Shown in pieces: positions 4,369-30,898 of a stretch of DNA of 32,000 nt. Position 1 is the stretch's first letter; each line of letters opens with the position of its first letter. The notes under the pieces are model-generated. The model saw nothing but the letters and a program-made list of their open reading frames with translations. It ran no database searches and was not told the DNA's origin. Source of the DNA: Candidatus Iainarchaeum sp. (GTDB lineage: Archaea; Iainarchaeota; Iainarchaeia; Iainarchaeales; JACQJH01); NCBI GenBank assembly GCA_016205145.1, contig JACQJH010000002.1, positions 360,001 to 392,000 on the forward strand, in the 5' to 3' direction. A program made the translations under genes and the position numbers.

Positions 4369-4944
4369 TCAGCGGATTTTCGCCTTGAGGCCCTTCCACC
4401 ACACGCCGTCAGACTTCATTGCCTCTTTGAAGATTTTTTTCGCGCTATCCGTTTTGAGTTCCTTTCCCGCGCGCTCAAACCATTCCACGCATTTTTTGTA
4501 GCCGTTGTCGAAATACTCTTTTCCCTGCAATGCAACTTCCAGAAGGTCAGCGTCCTTTGCAATTATCGCCTCAGCCGTTTTCTGCGCATTGAATTCCCGG
4601 AATAGTGCAAGCAGTCCCGTGCCGATGTCCTCCGGCAATTGTTCCGACTGGTGCCTTGCCGCAAGGTCTTCGGCTTCGGTCGAATCAATGTAATGCTGTG
4701 CGACCTTATGCAGATCGGTTACCCTCGCCTCGGGCATGTCATGGAAAACGCTCATTGCCGCGGCCTTATCCGCATCTGCCCCTTCAAGCTTCGCCAAAAC
4801 GAATGCAATCAATGCCGTGCGGTGCGAGTGCTCGGCGATGCTTTCAGGATTGTCAATTCCGGCAACCCACCAGCCCGAGCGCTTCTTGTATTTCAAGGCG
4901 CCCGCCTCGAAAAAATAGTCCGCGATTTTTTTGTAGTCCGGCAA
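4369..4944 (-). CDS. HD-domain phosphohydrolase (YfbR-like 5'-nucleotidase family)
   Basis: 191 aa with ESIAEHSHRTALIAFVL and FHDMPEARVTDL (an H...HD...D pattern). The TTG start abuts the gatC stop (TGATTG). GGTG lies 6 nt upstream inside the gatC 3' end. Confidence 0.75.
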   Translation of the reverse strand: MPDYKKIADYFFEAGALKYKKRSGWWVAGIDNPESIAEHSHRTALIAFVLAKLEGADADKAAAMSVFHDMPEARVTDLHKVAQHYIDSTEAEDLAARHQSEQLPEDIGTGLLALFREFNAQKTAEAIIAKDADLLEVALQGKEYFDNGYKKCVEWFERAGKELKTDSAKKIFKEAMKSDGVWWKGLKAKIR

Positions 4945-5280: not shown

Positions 5281-7071
5281 TCAGGCCTTATCCTTTTTGC
5301 CCGGAAGGCCTTCTTCGAGGTCGAGCTTTATGCTCAGCTCTTTGAGTTGCCTTGCACTGACTTCGCTTGGCGCGTTGTCCATCATTGAAATGCAGGCCTT
5401 GTTTTTCGGAAAGGCTATCACTTCGCGGATGCTTTCGTTGCCTGTAACCATTGCAACCAGCCTGTCAAGGCCGAAGGCTATTCCACCATGCGGCGGGGCG
5501 CCGTATTTGAAGGCTTCCAGCAAAAAGCCGAATTTTTTCTGCGCATCCTCCCGCGATATTTTGAGGATGTCGAAGATTTTTGACTGCAGTTCCTGCGAGT
5601 AAATCCTGAAACTGCCGCCGCCGAGCTCGACGCCGTTCACTGCAAGGTCGTACGCCATTGCCTTTGCCTTTTCCGGAGACCTGTCAAGCAAAGCTATGTC
5701 CTCTTTTCTCGGCGAAGTGAAAGGGTGGTGCATGGCATTCCACCTCTGCTCTTCCTCGCTCCACTCGAACATCGGAAAATCGGTTATCCAGACGAATTTG
5801 AAGTCATCGGGTTTCACAAGCTTCAGTTCATCGCGCAAATGCAGCCTTAACGCGGACAATGAATCGGAAACGATTTTTTCCGGCCCCGCGACAATGAGCA
5901 GGAGGTCGCCTTCCTTTGCCTGCAGTTTTTGTGCGATTGCATCCAGGATTTTTTTGTCAAAAAACTTTGAAACCTGCGAGTCCAATCCTTCCCTGGTGAC
6001 CTTTGCAGTAACGAGGCCTTTTGCCTTGAAGACTTTCGCCGTTTCCTCGAGTGTTTTAAGCTGGGATTTTGAAAAGTTTGCGCAGCCGCTTGCATTGATG
6101 CCCTTCACTTTGCCGCCGTTGCGCAGAATGCTTTTGAATACCTCGAAATTGCCTTTGCCTGCTTCCTCTGAAATGTCCGCAAGCTCGAGGCCGAACCTTG
6201 TGTCCGGCTTATCGCTTCCAAACCTAGACATTGCCTCGTCAAAGGTCATGCGCGGGAAAGGCGTTTTCACGCCGATTCCGAGCGAGGTTTTCCAAACGGC
6301 TTTCACCATGCCTTCCATTATTGAAAAGAATTCCTCGCGCTCGGGAAACGACATTTCCAGGTCGATTTGCGTGAATTCCGGCTGCCTGTCCGCCCTCAAA
6401 TCCTCGTCGCGGAAGCATTTTGCGACCTGGAAATAGCGGTCGAAGCCTGCAACCATCGACAACTGCTTGAACAGCTGCGGACTCTGCGGCAGGGCAAAAA
6501 ACTTTCCGGCATGCACCCTGCTCGGAACAAGATAGTCGCGCGCTCCCTCCGGAGTCGACTTCGCCAGGACAGGGGTTTCGATTTCAATGAAGCCCAAAGC
6601 GTCAAAATAGTCCCTGACTGTTTTCACTACGCGGTGCCGCATAATGAGGTTTTTCTGCATTTCCGGCTTGCGCAAATCCAAATAGCGGTATTTCAGCCGC
6701 ATGTCCTCGTTGACAGGAATCCTTGACTCGATCGGAAAAGGCAGTGCCTCGCTTTCGTTCAGTATTTCAACGGTGTCGGCGACGATTTCAATGCGGCCCG
6801 TCGGAATTTTCGGGTTTTCCGTGCCATTCGGCCGCTCCGCGACCGTTCCCTGCACTGAAACGACAAACTCGTCTTTCAGCTTTGCCGCAACTTCATGCGC
6901 CTTTTTGTTCACTTCGGGATTGAAGACGACCTGCGTTGTCCCGTACCTGTCGCGCACGTCAACAAAAGTGAGGCTGCCGTGGTCGCGCCTCGTTGCAATC
7001 CAGCCGTTCAAAACGACCTTCTTGCCCACGCTTTTTTCGTCAAGCCCGCCGCAGGTATGCGTCCGTTTCAT
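5281..7071 (-). CDS. aspS: Aspartyl-tRNA synthetase, bacterial-type (with GAD insertion domain)
   Basis: 596 aa with FALPQSPQLFKQL, FRDEDLRADRQPEFTQID, SDKPDTRFG, FVWITDFPMFEW, HHPFTSP and GGIAFGLDRL. The length and the large insertion between motifs 2 and 3 are the bacterial architecture. Confidence 0.9.
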   Translation of the reverse strand: MKRTHTCGGLDEKSVGKKVVLNGWIATRRDHGSLTFVDVRDRYGTTQVVFNPEVNKKAHEVAAKLKDEFVVSVQGTVAERPNGTENPKIPTGRIEIVADTVEILNESEALPFPIESRIPVNEDMRLKYRYLDLRKPEMQKNLIMRHRVVKTVRDYFDALGFIEIETPVLAKSTPEGARDYLVPSRVHAGKFFALPQSPQLFKQLSMVAGFDRYFQVAKCFRDEDLRADRQPEFTQIDLEMSFPEREEFFSIMEGMVKAVWKTSLGIGVKTPFPRMTFDEAMSRFGSDKPDTRFGLELADISEEAGKGNFEVFKSILRNGGKVKGINASGCANFSKSQLKTLEETAKVFKAKGLVTAKVTREGLDSQVSKFFDKKILDAIAQKLQAKEGDLLLIVAGPEKIVSDSLSALRLHLRDELKLVKPDDFKFVWITDFPMFEWSEEEQRWNAMHHPFTSPRKEDIALLDRSPEKAKAMAYDLAVNGVELGGGSFRIYSQELQSKIFDILKISREDAQKKFGFLLEAFKYGAPPHGGIAFGLDRLVAMVTGNESIREVIAFPKNKACISMMDNAPSEVSARQLKELSIKLDLEEGLPGKKDKA

Positions 7072-7150
7072 GAAAATCCGACTACAATTTCTCGCAAAAA
7101 GGGCTTTTAAAGGTTTTCAGAGCGCGTGCCCGCGCGCACTAATGCCTGCG

Positions 7151-8149
7151 CTAAGCGAACTCCGCCATCGTCTTCTGGCCTTTCTTGGACAAGGGCCTTG
7201 CCGGAACCCCCAGCCGTCTTTGCACAAAGCCAGCGAATTCCTTTTCAAAGCCGTGCATTGTCAGAACGAGTTTCGGCGAGCATTGCTTCACGTATTCAAG
7301 CAAACCATTGAAGTCCGCGTGGTCGGACAACGGAAAAGTCTTGTCAAAAAAGCCCCTGTGCTGCCAGCCCGTGCAGAAAGCGGAAACCACTTTTTTGCCG
7401 GTTGAAAATTCCAGCGCCTGGAACAATTGCGGGCTTGCAAGCGAGGGCGGCAGGATCAGCACATTCGAGTCCTTGAGGTTGTGGTCAAGCTTCAGGTATT
7501 CACCGAGCTTGACGCCGCATTGCCCGTAAACCTCGTTGTTGCCGAAAACCGATTCGTGCACCAAAGGCGTCTGCTTCGAATAATTGTTCACGGTCGCAGT
7601 GAGTTCCTGCGCCTTGCCCGCCGCATACCCTGCCAGCACGACAAACCTGTTTTTTTCCGCGTTCTCGTCAACCCATTTTCCGATGTCCGCGTAAACCTTT
7701 TCCCTGTCGGGAAAAGAATACTGGGGCAGGCCGAAAGTCGTTTCCATCACCAGGACATCGGCCTTGAGCACTTCAGCGCCTTGCTGGATCAGGGAATCCT
7801 GAAATTTGAAATCGGATGTGAAGGCAATGCTTGAACCGTTTTCCATCAGCACCTGGCTTCCGCCGAGGATGTGGCCGGAGTTGTGCAGGCTCACTTCGAA
7901 GCCGTTTATGTCAAACTTTTTTTTGAAAGCCATTCCCTCAAGCCTTGCAGTGCCGGCTTTTTTGTAAATGTTTTTCACCAATGCAAGGGTTTCATTTGAC
8001 ATCAGGAAACGCGTTTTTTTGTTCAGGGAAACGTGGTCGGAATGGCAGTGTGAAATCACAGCCGTTTCCGTTTTCGGCGACCTGTGGGGGTCGATGACGA
8101 ATTCCTTTCCCGGTTCTATGGCTATGCCGTTGTCGAAAACAAGCTGCAT
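7151..8149 (-). CDS. Short-form metallo-beta-lactamase / beta-CASP nuclease
   Basis: 332 aa from ATG 8147-8149, with HCHSDH, GHILGGS, VMETTFG, LSDHAD and TMHGF motifs. The TTG at 8182 used by the track abuts a TATA-like CCTTTAAATT (8184-8192), so it is unlikely to be translated. Confidence 0.75.
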   Translation of the reverse strand: MQLVFDNGIAIEPGKEFVIDPHRSPKTETAVISHCHSDHVSLNKKTRFLMSNETLALVKNIYKKAGTARLEGMAFKKKFDINGFEVSLHNSGHILGGSQVLMENGSSIAFTSDFKFQDSLIQQGAEVLKADVLVMETTFGLPQYSFPDREKVYADIGKWVDENAEKNRFVVLAGYAAGKAQELTATVNNYSKQTPLVHESVFGNNEVYGQCGVKLGEYLKLDHNLKDSNVLILPPSLASPQLFQALEFSTGKKVVSAFCTGWQHRGFFDKTFPLSDHADFNGLLEYVKQCSPKLVLTMHGFEKEFAGFVQRRLGVPARPLSKKGQKTMAEFA

Positions 8150-13257: not shown

Positions 13258-14553
13258 ATGGCAAACGGCACGATAAAAGTCGGCCTGATCGGCTTCGGCA
13301 CGGTCGGGGCAGGTGTATACAGGCTTCTCACTGAAAAGAACGCCAAGCTCTCCGAGAGGATCGGCACAGGGCTCGAAGTGAAAAGAGTCTGCGTGAAAAA
13401 CGGGTCGAAAAAGCGGCCGGTCGACATTCCAAAGGAACTGCTTTCAACCGATTTCAGGGAAATAATCTCCGACCCCGAAATCGACATTGTCGTCGAGGCG
13501 ATCGGCGGCACGACCGACGCGAAAAAAATCTTTGACGGCGCAATCGCGAACGGCAAGCACATCGTTACAGCCAACAAGGCGCTGCTTGCCGAACAGGGCT
13601 ACGGGATTTTCAGGAAGGCTAAGGAAAAAAACGTGCTCATAGGCTTTGAGGCGTCCGTCTGCGCCGCTGTTCCGATCATAAAGGTTTTGCGCGAAAGCCT
13701 TGTCGCAAACGACATTCAGTTCGTCCACACCATAGTCAACGGCACGTGCAATTACATTCTCACGAGAATGTCCGAGGACGGCATGGACTTTGCCCAGGCA
13801 CTGAAGCTGGCGCAGGAAAAAGGCTTTGCGGAAGCCGACCCGAAACTTGACATTGACGGAAGCGATTCCGCGCACAAGCTGGTGCTTTTGGCCCTCACAG
13901 CGTTCGGCGCGCACATCACGGAAAAAGACATCCTGAAGGAAGGCATCACGCAGATAACGGAAAGGGACATAGAGTACGCGAAAGAGCTTGGTTACACTAT
14001 AAAGCTATTGGCAATCCTGCACAACAACGCGGGAAAGCTTGAGGCGAGAGTGCATCCGACGCTTCTGCCGAAAGACCACATGCTTGCCGACATCCGCAAC
14101 GAGTTCAACGCCATTCAGGTGAAAGGAGATGCGTGCGGCAGCCTGCTGTTTTCCGGAAAAGGGGCGGGCATGATGCCGACAGCTTCCGCAATGGTTTCAG
14201 ACATAGTCGAAATAGCGAAAAAGATCGCACGGCATGCCGTGAGAAGCGAATCGATAAAGTTCGACTCGATGAAGCTTGAAGGGCTCGACGAAATGGAGAC
14301 AAGGCATTACCTTCGCTTTACGGTCGTGGACGTTCCGGGTGTCATGGCAAAAATCTCCAAAACCCTGGGCGACAGCGGCATAAGCATTGCATCTATAATC
14401 CAGAAGGAAAGGTACGGCGAAGGCGAAGTAGTGCCGGTAGTGCTGACAACGCATGCCGCAAGCGAGAAAAAAATAGGCGAGGCGCTCAGGCAGATCGACA
14501 GGCTCGACTGCATAAAGGCGAAAACATTCAGGATAAGAATGATAGAATCATAA
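13258..14553 (+). CDS. hom: Homoserine dehydrogenase with C-terminal ACT domain
   Basis: 431 aa with IKVGLIGFGTVGAGVYRLL, ANKALLA, GFAEADPKLDIDGSDSAHKL and a C-terminal ACT-like region (RFTVVDVPGVMAKISKTLG). Confidence 0.9.
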   Translation: MANGTIKVGLIGFGTVGAGVYRLLTEKNAKLSERIGTGLEVKRVCVKNGSKKRPVDIPKELLSTDFREIISDPEIDIVVEAIGGTTDAKKIFDGAIANGKHIVTANKALLAEQGYGIFRKAKEKNVLIGFEASVCAAVPIIKVLRESLVANDIQFVHTIVNGTCNYILTRMSEDGMDFAQALKLAQEKGFAEADPKLDIDGSDSAHKLVLLALTAFGAHITEKDILKEGITQITERDIEYAKELGYTIKLLAILHNNAGKLEARVHPTLLPKDHMLADIRNEFNAIQVKGDACGSLLFSGKGAGMMPTASAMVSDIVEIAKKIARHAVRSESIKFDSMKLEGLDEMETRHYLRFTVVDVPGVMAKISKTLGDSGISIASIIQKERYGEGEVVPVVLTTHAASEKKIGEALRQIDRLDCIKAKTFRIRMIES

Positions 14554-14555
14554 AA

Positions 14556-14654
14556 AGCCGGTTTCGTCCGGCTGGTCCGAAACCAAGGCTTATTGCCGAT
14601 GCAATAAGCCGGGTAAGGCAATAGGCCATAAAAGCGCGCTACGAGATTCGTAGC
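14556..14654 (+). repeat. Intergenic modular hairpin element, copy A (box + H1 + H2 + H3)
   Basis: AGCCGGTTTCGTCCGGCTGGT (14556-14576) is identical to 23884-23904. H1 is GGTTTCG (14560-66) / 11-nt loop / CGAAACC (14578-84). H2 is GGCTTATTGC (14587-96) / CGAT / GCAATAAGCC (14601-10). H3 is GCTACGA (14638-44) / GAT / TCGTAGC (14648-54), followed by an A6...T6 stretch. The element starts 3 nt after the hom stop. Confidence 0.8.
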
Positions 14655-19521: not shown

Positions 19522-19572
19522 GGCGTATTGCAACTGCAATACGCCTTAGTTTCGCTCCACGCAGCCGAAACT
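19522..19572 (-). repeat. Intergenic modular hairpin element, copy B (H2 + H1, inverted relative to copy A)
   Basis: GGCGTATTGCA-AC-TGCAATACGCC (19522-45), TT, then AGTTTCG (19548-54) / 11-nt loop / CGAAACT (19566-72). Read on the minus strand it aligns with 14560-14616: same H1-AA-H2 order, same 11-nt H1 loop length, and stem differences that are paired. Confidence 0.75.
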
Positions 19573-19620: not shown

Positions 19621-19677
19621 AGGCAGATGGGTATTGCAATTGCAATACCCGTCGCGCACCAGCCGGGCGCGACGGCT
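19621..19677 (-). repeat. Intergenic modular element, copy C, abutting the 3' end of tRNA-Thr
   Basis: The minus strand reads AGCCG-TCGCGC-CCGGCTGGTGCGCG (plus 19653-19677). Next comes the perfect 22-nt palindrome GGGTATTGCAATTGCAATACCC (19629-19650), then A-TCTGCCT (19621-19627). An alternative 8-bp hairpin is CGTCGCGC / ACCAGCCGG / GCGCGACG (19650-19674). Confidence 0.8.
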
Positions 19678-19749
19678 AGCCCCGAGAGGGATTTGAACCC
19701 TCGGCCACTCGCTTACGAAGCGAGTGCTCTACCGCTGAGCTACCGGGGC
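19678..19749 (-). tRNA. tRNA-Thr (anticodon CGU)
   Basis: GCCCCGG-TA-GCTC-AGCGGTA-GAGC-A-CTCGC-TTCGTAA-GCGAG-TGGCC-GAGGG-TTCAAAT-CCCTC-TCGGGGC-T. All four stems pair (one G-U in the acceptor stem). 72 nt, no encoded CCA, no intron. Confidence 0.9.
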
Positions 19750-23883: not shown

Positions 23884-23943
23884 AGCCGGTTTCGTCCGGC
23901 TGGTGCGCGTTGAGGGGCCTCGCTTTGCTCAGCCCCTCTGCCT
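23884..23943 (+). repeat. Intergenic modular element, copy D, 1 nt after the 3' end of tRNA-Arg
   Basis: AGCCG-GTTTCGT-CCGGCTGGTGCGCG (23884-23909), then hairpin GAGGGGC (23912-18) / 13-nt loop / GCCCCTC (23932-38), then TCTGCCT (23937-43, overlapping the stem end). The first 21 nt equal 14556-14576. The last 14 nt of the box equal the reverse complement of 19653-19666. Confidence 0.8.
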
Positions 23944-23996
23944 GCGGTTTGTGGATATTTCCAGCCACAAGCCCAAAAACGCCCATTTTATTCGTC

Positions 23997-30812: not shown

Positions 30813-30832
30813 CGCATCCCAGGCCGCCACGC

Positions 30833-30898
30833 CCGGCCGGTGCGCGCCCGATTCCGCTGCGCTTCATCGGGCTGGCTCGCTTCGCTCGCAACTGCAAT
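30833..30898 (+). repeat. Degenerate copy (E) of the intergenic modular element
   Basis: CCGGCCGGTGCGCG (30833-46) matches the box core CCGGCTGGTGCGCG at 13 of 14 positions. A hairpin follows: GCCCGAT (30846-52) / 13-nt loop / ATCGGGC (30866-72). GCAACTGCAAT (30888-98) is identical to 19530-40 in copy B. Confidence 0.5.

Follow-up and report, generated by a model that had tools for sequence, protein, structure and literature searches.

What is the short conserved box that lies directly behind both tRNA genes in a part of the genome of Candidatus Iainarchaeum sp.? We analysed 32,000 nucleotides of this archaeon (positions 360,001 to 392,000 of contig JACQJH010000002.1, assembly GCA_016205145.1; hereafter, the window), in which the box follows tRNA-Thr, tRNA-Arg and the gene hom. 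An initial annotation of the window had offered four explanations: a shared signal for tRNA 3'-trailer processing or termination, a small RNA released by RNase Z, a tRNA-like minihelix, and the conserved end of a small mobile element that targets gene 3' ends. We found that the box belongs to a multi-copy, interspersed family whose presence varies between related genomes, with discrete insertion at gene and tRNA boundaries. The last of the four explanations came closest to the evidence, and we lean towards a structured and modular insertion element, confined to this lineage, that prefers tRNA and gene boundaries and has the box as its conserved 5' module.

The element family and its fold

The sequences reported behind tRNA-Thr, tRNA-Arg and hom were all recovered at their places in the window. 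We refer to the copy after hom as copy A, to that after tRNA-Arg as copy B and to that after tRNA-Thr as copy C; with a further one, copy D, the window holds four copies within 32 kb (Table 1). On the minus strand, AGCCGTCGCGCCCGGCTGGTGCGCGACGG stands right behind the discriminator base of tRNA-Thr, and AGCCGGTTTCGTCCGGCTGGTGCGCG begins at 23884, which is 0 nt (ARAGORN) or 1 nt (Rfam) past tRNA-Arg. Copy A starts 2 nt after the hom stop codon (TAA at 14551-14553), not 3 nt as first given. The 21-mer AGCCGGTTTCGTCCGGCTGGT is identical between 14556-14576 and the first 21 nt of copy B (from 23884), giving two occurrences against 0.00 expected from 100 shuffles. The 14-mer CCGGCTGGTGCGCG occurs exactly twice in the window, and with up to three mismatches it gave 13 matches against a shuffle mean of 5.5, a number that no shuffle reached. 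These exact 14- and 21-nt repeats are not expected as products of chance. The two tRNA-linked boxes are indeed followed by perfect hairpins of unrelated sequence (GGGTATTGC/GCAATACCC versus GAGGGGC/GCCCCTC), and the shared heptamer TCTGCCT was confirmed at 19621-19627 and 23937-23943.

The family was collected by pattern scans of GTDB genomes and JGI metagenomes, followed by looser searches inside the archaeal loci so found, which yielded further box variants; L-numbers denote the loci or contigs of related archaea that we compared with the window. In the archaeal contigs, AGCCGTCACGCCCGGCTGGTGCG(A/G)G precedes a hairpin of which the stem sequence varies among copies, and this is followed by a tail of the form GCTCGCTTCGCTCGC or GGCTTCGC, or TGCCTGCC in L198, the form closest to copy B. 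About 31 copies were found over 25 archaeal contigs from several metagenome-assembled genomes (MAGs) and metagenomes, all in the same order of box, variable hairpin or hairpins, and tail, with a size of 55-100 nt. Written as RNA, the box consensus is (U)AGCCG-UCACGC-CCGGCUGGU-GCGRG, and the tails are GCUCGCUUCGCUCGC or GGCUUCGC, with UGCCUGC in the lineage of the window. Conservation starts sharply at (U)AGCCG, and the sequence upstream is arbitrary.

The same scans also gave many chance matches in GC-rich bacteria. Some records with copies are titled Chloroflexi, Chloroflexota or Thaumarchaeota; we consider these labels wrong because the contigs carry archaeal genes (PorA_Arch, NcsA, aIF2, AGOG), and a glycyl-tRNA synthetase (GlyRS) 73% identical to that of the window also counts towards their archaeal origin. 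The mislabelled MAG records, with archaeal genes of DPANN type, are L085/L137/L152 (JAFCCG01), L109/L127 (DAOWAC01) and L110 (JAFCCH01). The family is specific to Iainarchaeota/Diapherotrites (DPANN) archaea. It also appears to be undescribed so far. Rfam recognised nothing except tRNAs, either at the gathering threshold or at E<=10. The loose box pattern gave 71 matches in viral contigs, all of them chance matches in GC-rich coding DNA, and blastn with a canonical element found no match in phage and plasmid collections. Literature searches by sequence string and by topic returned nothing relevant to the element.

The box can form two overlapping helices, namely S1 (AGCCG/CGGCU) and S2 (CACGC/GCGRG), the latter closing the loop C-CGGCU-GGU. 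This loop of 9 nt hardly varies between genomes, although their remaining intergenic DNA cannot be aligned. When S1 and S2 were examined together over 30 copies, 97.8% of the cells were paired and double changes were seen in four of the nine pairs; none of 500 shuffles matched the covariation score, and slid controls collapsed. The arms of S2 alternate among CGC/GCG, CTG/CAG, CAG/CTG and CGT/ACG, while the A-U pair of S1 has become G-C in copy D and C-G in L215. Compensatory changes were also present at five of the seven pairs of the hairpin-2 stem, and the copies beside tRNA-Ile in L116 and L215, which are orthologous, differ in a compensatory manner in S1, S2 and the inner stem. These results show that S1, S2 and the hairpin-2 stem are maintained by compensatory change. 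A different pairing, between the tail and the 3' arm of S2, was favoured by RNAfold, but it covaries in only one of four arm variants, versus four of four for the 5' arm, and was rejected. The alternative 7-bp stem of the initial annotation, which corresponds to S2, holds for copy A (GGTTTCG/CGAAACC), but the stem of copy C is 9 bp, a length also reached in L202, and copy B cannot form it.

Insertion at gene and tRNA boundaries

Comparison with related loci revealed both filled and empty sites. In the hom-dapB spacer of L220, the closest relative there with a Hom 88% identical to that of the window, both sides align and the element of about 55 nt is absent. The site 3' of tRNA-Thr, downstream of GlyRS, is empty in L217, L218 and L219. 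At tRNA-Arg(CCU), the window and L218 both have an element, with different hairpins and tails, L217 has a degenerate one, and L219 and L085 have none. L223 and L224, the closest relatives by GlyRS, have no tRNA-Thr next to that gene and are uninformative. Direct duplications flank six or seven of the 31 copies (22, 29, 23 and 22 nt, and two of 12-16 nt) and score far above shuffled controls. In one MAG, two loci share a 112-nt block with a single mismatch, reaching from 12 nt before the box to about 46 nt past the tail. Because this block includes flanking sequence, the copied unit in that MAG extended beyond the conserved element. L078, L127 and L203 contain tandem arrays in which hairpin modules are repeated.

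The copies occupy several kinds of boundary. Those behind tRNA-Thr and tRNA-Arg in the window, and behind tRNA-Arg in L218, lie on the same strand 0-2 nt past the tRNA 3' end, whereas others lie on the opposite strand 1 nt from tRNA 5' ends (tRNA-Ile in L116 and L215, tRNA-Gly in L195 and L197). The copy in L202 forms the 5' part of an intron of about 110 nt at position 37/38 of tRNA-Pro(UGG), in sense orientation; this intron is closed by exon-intron pairing with a 3-nt bulge, using extra intron sequence. Other copies overlap or closely follow stop codons, often as T-AG-CCG, and some adjoin the start codons of divergent genes. In about 11 copies, the 5' edge of the element falls on a tRNA discriminator or on a stop codon. 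Orientation is unbiased, with about eight copies co-directional with both neighbours and about nine antisense to both. Contact with a tRNA was found at 6 of 28 independent sites versus about 4% expected by our own estimate (binomial P of about 7e-4), so that the tRNA link is real but not exclusive. Apart from the tRNAs themselves, no hairpin was found upstream of the insertion points as a general target. Accordingly, the proposal of a mobile-element end stands with respect to the 5' module of a multi-copy element, empty orthologous sites, some flanking duplications and tandem arrays, but its restriction to gene 3' ends does not, as copies also occur at gene starts, at opposite-strand tRNA 5' ends and in a tRNA intron.

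Some features of the compared loci are recorded here in their own right. Unusually long tRNA introns (about 70-130 nt) missed by ARAGORN occur in tRNA-Arg(CCU), tRNA-Gly(GCC), tRNA-Pro(UGG) and tRNA-Ile(UAU); such introns or tRNAs lie at L217:~6350-7260, L219:2890-3110, L195:530-670, L202:4937-5107 and L215:~4800-4875. In L217, the tRNA-Thr gene contains an intron of 12 nt and received the call '???'. In L127:746-833, 14 nt from the 3' part of tRNA-Ala (TTCAATTCCCGCAG) are present a second time, 75 nt downstream of the intact tRNA and directly before the box array, and they may be a remnant of insertion into a tRNA 3' region. Just downstream of tRNA-Thr, where the window has its box element, L218 carries an ORF (open reading frame) with a LAGLIDADG domain (L218:11180-12202). 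In L219 (3509-3976 and 5831-8990), the GlyRS-Nop56-fibrillarin cluster is broken by toxin-antitoxin and Fic genes (ParE, MNT/HepT), and an IS200-type Y1 transposase gene lies nearby, not flanked by a box.

Possible nature and spread of the element

If the box marks an insertion element, as we favour, the element would multiply by inserting duplicates of itself. The copying or processing machinery would recognise the box when it is folded as single-stranded RNA or DNA, into either a pseudoknot or a two-state switch. Insertion may occur, or be tolerated, exactly where tRNA genes and other well-expressed genes end, and copies at such ends would be carried passively in trailers, leaders, introns and spacers. 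The least secure step concerns the template, which might be a transcript or another imprecise one rather than DNA moved by a cut-and-paste transposase with defined ends; copying of this kind fits better because the duplications are irregular, flanks were co-copied, the 5' end is sharp and the 3' end is ragged.

Several results weigh against an insertion element. No mobilising gene lies near the copies, whose neighbours have housekeeping roles (radical SAM, NUDIX, aldolase, P5CR and others), and neither a reverse transcriptase nor another partner gene turned up, in the course of work that included no search aimed at one. There are no terminal inverted repeats and no target duplication of fixed length, and flanking repeats could be detected at none of 24 of the 31 copies, among them the four in the window. 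The copy number per genome looks modest, as the strict pattern occurs once on a 457-kb contig and three unbiased 20-kb loci contain 0-1 copies. The antisense strand folds better by 1.3 kcal/mol on average, which is weak evidence on the acting strand. Also, some sites carry copies in each of several genomes with a GlyRS divergence of about 27%, and the orthologous copies have evolved by compensatory changes; this suggests selection in the host rather than mere selfish spread.

This last point leads to the main alternative, which we consider possible but rather unlikely, namely that the module is a structured RNA with a host function, as a small RNA or a cis-acting one, and is not primarily mobile. 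The box would then be bound by a protein or processing enzyme and define or protect 3' ends, or be recognised by RNase P or RNase Z as a tRNA mimic, and the module would be expressed as a passenger of tRNA and strongly expressed transcripts, from which RNase Z, RNase P or the splicing endonuclease would free it. The compensatory changes in S1, S2 and hairpin 2, also between orthologous copies, the near-invariant loop, and the 5' edges at discriminators or stop codons are all consistent with such a role, as are the filling of the same sites in different genomes (tRNA-Arg 3' end, thermosome 3' end, tRNA-Ile 5' flank) and the sense copy in the tRNA-Pro intron, flanked by helix-bulge-helix-like pairing. 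However, about one third of the copies are antisense to both neighbours with no space for a promoter of their own, close relatives have empty sites, copy B has lost S2, the folding energies carry no sense-strand signal, and the flanking duplications and tandem arrays point to insertion events. The two readings are not mutually exclusive. We give a small chance to a new class of archaeal structured RNA in which a compact pseudoknot or two-state switch presenting CCGGCUGGU serves as an autonomous processing signal, either self-cleaving or as a tRNA mimic that recruits RNase P or RNase Z and so defines transcript ends, and which spreads among DPANN genomes by retro-like copying of transcripts. 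We hold it very unlikely that the box is a novel ribozyme or ribozyme-like module that cuts at its own 5' edge, trims tRNA trailers and resolves tandem units. HDV-like (hepatitis delta virus-like) 'theta' ribozymes do occur downstream of phage tRNAs, and the abrupt start of conservation after arbitrary sequence, the copies beginning 0-2 nt past tRNA 3' ends, the head-to-tail tandem units and a compact pseudoknot-like fold with two covarying helices would suit a ribozyme. Yet no Rfam ribozyme family matched even at E<=10, tRNA 3' processing is already explained by RNase Z, many copies stand in antisense contexts, and manual HDV threading fails, with 6-7 nt between the P1-like strands and no room for P2, P3 and L3.

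A general signal for tRNA 3'-trailer processing or termination, the leading option initially, is already contradicted by the data, and we find it the hardest of all to credit. Both tRNA genes of the window carry the box at their 3' side and the association with tRNA-Arg recurs in L218 and L217, but among about 22 tRNA genes of the archaeal loci only tRNA-Thr of the window and tRNA-Arg(CCU) of the window, L218 and, in degenerate form, L217 have it there. It is absent at tRNA-Leu, Ser, Val, Ala and Pro, at tRNA-Thr of three relatives and at tRNA-Arg of two, and most of the tRNAs run directly into T-runs. Moreover, about 22 of the 28 independent sites are away from any tRNA, and four copies abut opposite-strand tRNA 5' ends. 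A trailer RNA released by RNase Z and a tRNA-like minihelix are likewise not favoured because orientation shows no bias and there is no 5' acceptor strand, the latter because the sequence upstream of the box is arbitrary. As for the minihelix, ARAGORN and the Rfam tRNA model call true tRNAs only, and the loop of S1 is UCACGCC, unlike the UUCRANY loop of a T-arm. We attach barely more credence than to the trailer signal to a site-specific recombination site of att or attC type, in which the core CCGGCTGG would lie between exchangeable inverted arms and copy B would be a recombination product. Copy B does unite the hom copy's left arm with the Thr copy's right arm on the two sides of the core that they share, and elements lie behind stop codons as attC sites do. 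On the other hand, reading of the sequence gave no R'/R'' signature (GTTRRRY/RYYYAAC) and no R''-L''...L'-R' motifs as in integron attC sites, the neighbours are core genes and not cassettes, no integrase gene is nearby, the window lacks the reciprocal chimera, and the complementarity of the arms in other genomes is more simply explained by helix S2.

The insertion-element reading can also be judged against known systems. Pneumococcal BOX elements (boxA-boxB(n)-boxC), ERIC and Neisseria Correia elements, the modular structured intergenic repeats of bacteria, are likewise small, non-coding, multi-copy, lineage-specific and strongly folded. They too are built from modules, one conserved at the end, one a hairpin that can be repeated, and a tail, and they sit in short spacers in either orientation with variable presence between strains or species. 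Unlike them, the present element has an archaeal (DPANN) host, has neither terminal inverted repeats nor a fixed TA-type duplication, carries as its 5' module two overlapping covarying helices around a near-invariant 9-nt loop, and is markedly associated with tRNA boundaries, with one copy in a tRNA intron. The reading as a MITE (miniature inverted-repeat transposable element) was rejected, since the ends share at most AGCC...GGCT (4 nt) in one subfamily only, tails of the GCTCGCTTCGCTCGC type have no inverted counterpart, and the flanking repeats are variable (12-29 nt) and restricted to 6-7 of 31 copies. In the loci covered, about 220 kb, neither a longer element nor a transposase that could belong to a MITE parent adjoins a copy. 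Repetitive extragenic palindromes (REP/REPIN) mobilised by RAYT, a Y1 transposase of IS200/IS605 type, are likewise short hairpin repeats between genes with compensatory change and occasional clustering, and one related genome (L219) has a Y1_Tnp gene. The present clusters, however, are direct tandem arrays and not inverted pairs, the element has no GTAG-type 5' tetranucleotide, and some copies have flanking duplications of 12-29 nt, unlike REPs. We rejected this assignment: the arrays are direct, the hairpins flanking the sole Y1_Tnp gene seen are unrelated, and that 18-kb locus holds no copy. An IS200/IS605-derived PATE was rejected as well, as the bases before the box vary, with only T at -1 enriched (17 of 32 copies), and some duplications are long.

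SINE-like retroposons (short interspersed nuclear elements) share with the element a 5' end that is sharp, conserved and structured, a 3' end that is AT-rich and ragged, flanking duplications that only some copies have and that vary in length, co-copied flanks (one recent pair) and an association with tRNA transcription units. Unlike them, it has no tRNA-derived promoter region and no poly(A) or simple-repeat tail, its 3' ends being AT-rich and not poly(A), and we know of no reverse transcriptase partner for it. The cleavage site of theta (HDV-like) and hatchet ribozymes lies at their own 5' edge, and they resemble the element in having all conservation downstream of the junction, a pseudoknot-like fold and a position directly 3' of tRNAs. 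They differ from it in that the element has no Rfam match, a helix order incompatible with a nested double pseudoknot, and many non-tRNA and antisense contexts. The HDV-like assignment was rejected on the lack of a match to RF00094-type or other ribozymes at E<=10 and on the spacing of the P1-like strands. Archaeal tRNA introns may house small RNAs or move between positions, and the L202 copy in tRNA-Pro(UGG) resembles them; exon-intron pairing was found in L202 only, and, unlike self-contained bulge-helix-bulge introns, all other copies lie outside tRNAs, with ends that do not pair with their flanks. A guide RNA was not supported either: there was no Rfam match to C/D box or H/ACA sRNAs, reading gave a partial GAUGA in some hairpins only, the internal loops are 3+3 nt, and ACA behind the hairpin is frequent but not universal. 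The HDV, pistol, hammerhead, H/ACA and C/D readings were rejected for their helix order or for missing boxes. A primer-binding site, with UGGUGCG complementary to the ...CGCACCA end of a tRNA, was ruled out by the covariation of this segment with an internal arm.

We place the family among structured interspersed repeats, a known kind of element, and see a lesser chance that it is an RNA-processing or retro-type system new to Archaea. DPANN archaea have tiny, tightly packed genomes, and a conserved folded multi-copy element at tRNA and gene boundaries is unexpected there because non-coding DNA is scarce. The element gives practical access to the question of how minimal genomes direct and tolerate insertions, and it is a candidate new structured RNA with covariation support for both helices. 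It explains why some tRNA flanks look odd and why spurious ORFs are called in these MAGs, and it may also explain breaks in their assembly. If copying is transcript-based, or if the box is a processing signal, the mechanism would be new for Archaea, and a retro-like RNA, if true, would be the first SINE-like or retrozyme-like system described in this domain.

Copies in the window and their surroundings

Table 1. Coordinates of the element copies, their parts and the adjoining tRNA genes in the window.
Feature	Position	Strand	Remarks
Copy A box	14556..14584	plus	29.1 bits; 2 nt 3' of hom stop
Copy A hairpin 2	14587..14610	plus	GGCTTATTGC-CGAT-GCAATAAGCC, TATTGC type
Solitary TATTGC-type hairpin	19522..19545		GGCGTATTGC-AACT-GCAATACGCC
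Copy C hairpin 2 and tail	19621..19650	minus	GGGTATTGC-AATT-GCAATACCC, then A and TCTGCCT
Copy C box	19649..19677	minus	38.9 bits; abuts tRNA-Thr discriminator
tRNA-Thr(CGU)	19678-19749	minus	no CCA encoded
tRNA-Arg(CCU)	23807/8-23882/3	plus	no CCA encoded
Copy B box	23884..23909	plus	27.1 bits; behind tRNA-Arg(CCU)
Copy B hairpin 2 and tail	23912..23947	plus	GAGGGGC-CTCGCTTTGCTCA-GCCCCTC; tail TGCCTGCGG
Copy D	30822..30889	plus	38.8 bits; not in the initial annotation; more canonical copy

In copy A, S1 is AGCCGG/CCGGCT and S2 encloses the loop CCGGCTGGT, which copy C presents at the end of its longer stem (CCGTCGCGC/GCGCGACGG). Copy B has an intact S1 and a broken S2. Its first 21 nt are those of copy A, and its 3' arm, GCGCG, is that of copies C and D. 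Accordingly, copy B is unable to form S2 because it is a chimera of a hom-type 5' arm and a Thr-type 3' arm. The nearest counterpart of its hairpin and tail was found in L198 (GAGGGTTC..GAACCCTC TGCCTGCC). Copy D consists of the box GGCCGCCACGCCCGGCCGGTGCGCG, the hairpin CCCGAT..ATCGGG and the canonical tail GGCTCGCTTCGCTCGC, and it lies between a malic enzyme gene and an ArsR-type regulator gene, antisense to both.

The hairpin of copy A, of TATTGC type, has counterparts of the same type within the elements of L215 and L218. The form NNTATTGC-N4-GCAATANN recurs among hairpins of the window at 14587-14610, 19522-19545 and 19629-19650, two of them as hairpin 2 of box elements and one solitary; outside the window, the motif was seen within hairpins belonging to L215 and L218 elements and within the intron of the L195 tRNA-Gly. 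The solitary hairpin may be a box-less hairpin module of the same family. Box-less modules resembling hairpin 2 (GTGCCATT...AATGGCAC; CCCATT...AATGGG) stand behind tRNA-Val (L195:2550-2630) and tRNA-Ala (L127:746-790). This suggests that the hairpin module is able to occur, or to persist, alone. Independent short-read assemblies of the same organism (Logan contig L001/L216, ends 19547 and 29032) break at 19547, beside the solitary hairpin, and they call a 55-aa ORF spanning the tRNA-Arg element, which is probably spurious. The fibrillarin and the beta-CASP protein of the window led only to Logan contigs of 9.5 kb or less.

The genes of the window are archaeal in content, including aNop56, fibrillarin and an archaeal-type GlyRS, whose source-named homologues with 62-74% identity are from Candidatus Iainarchaeum or a Diapherotrites archaeon; this places the window in a DPANN archaeon of the Iainarchaeota. 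The gene hom (13258-14553) has one relative with 88% identity, in L220, and the other source-named Hom homologues are all bacterial (NC10, Omnitrophica, Deltaproteobacteria) with about 49-56% identity; it was probably acquired by this archaeon from bacteria. A GatB/GatE-type amidotransferase subunit (266-2122) has an apparent N-terminal extension of about 150 aa, which by eye is YbaK/deacylase-like.

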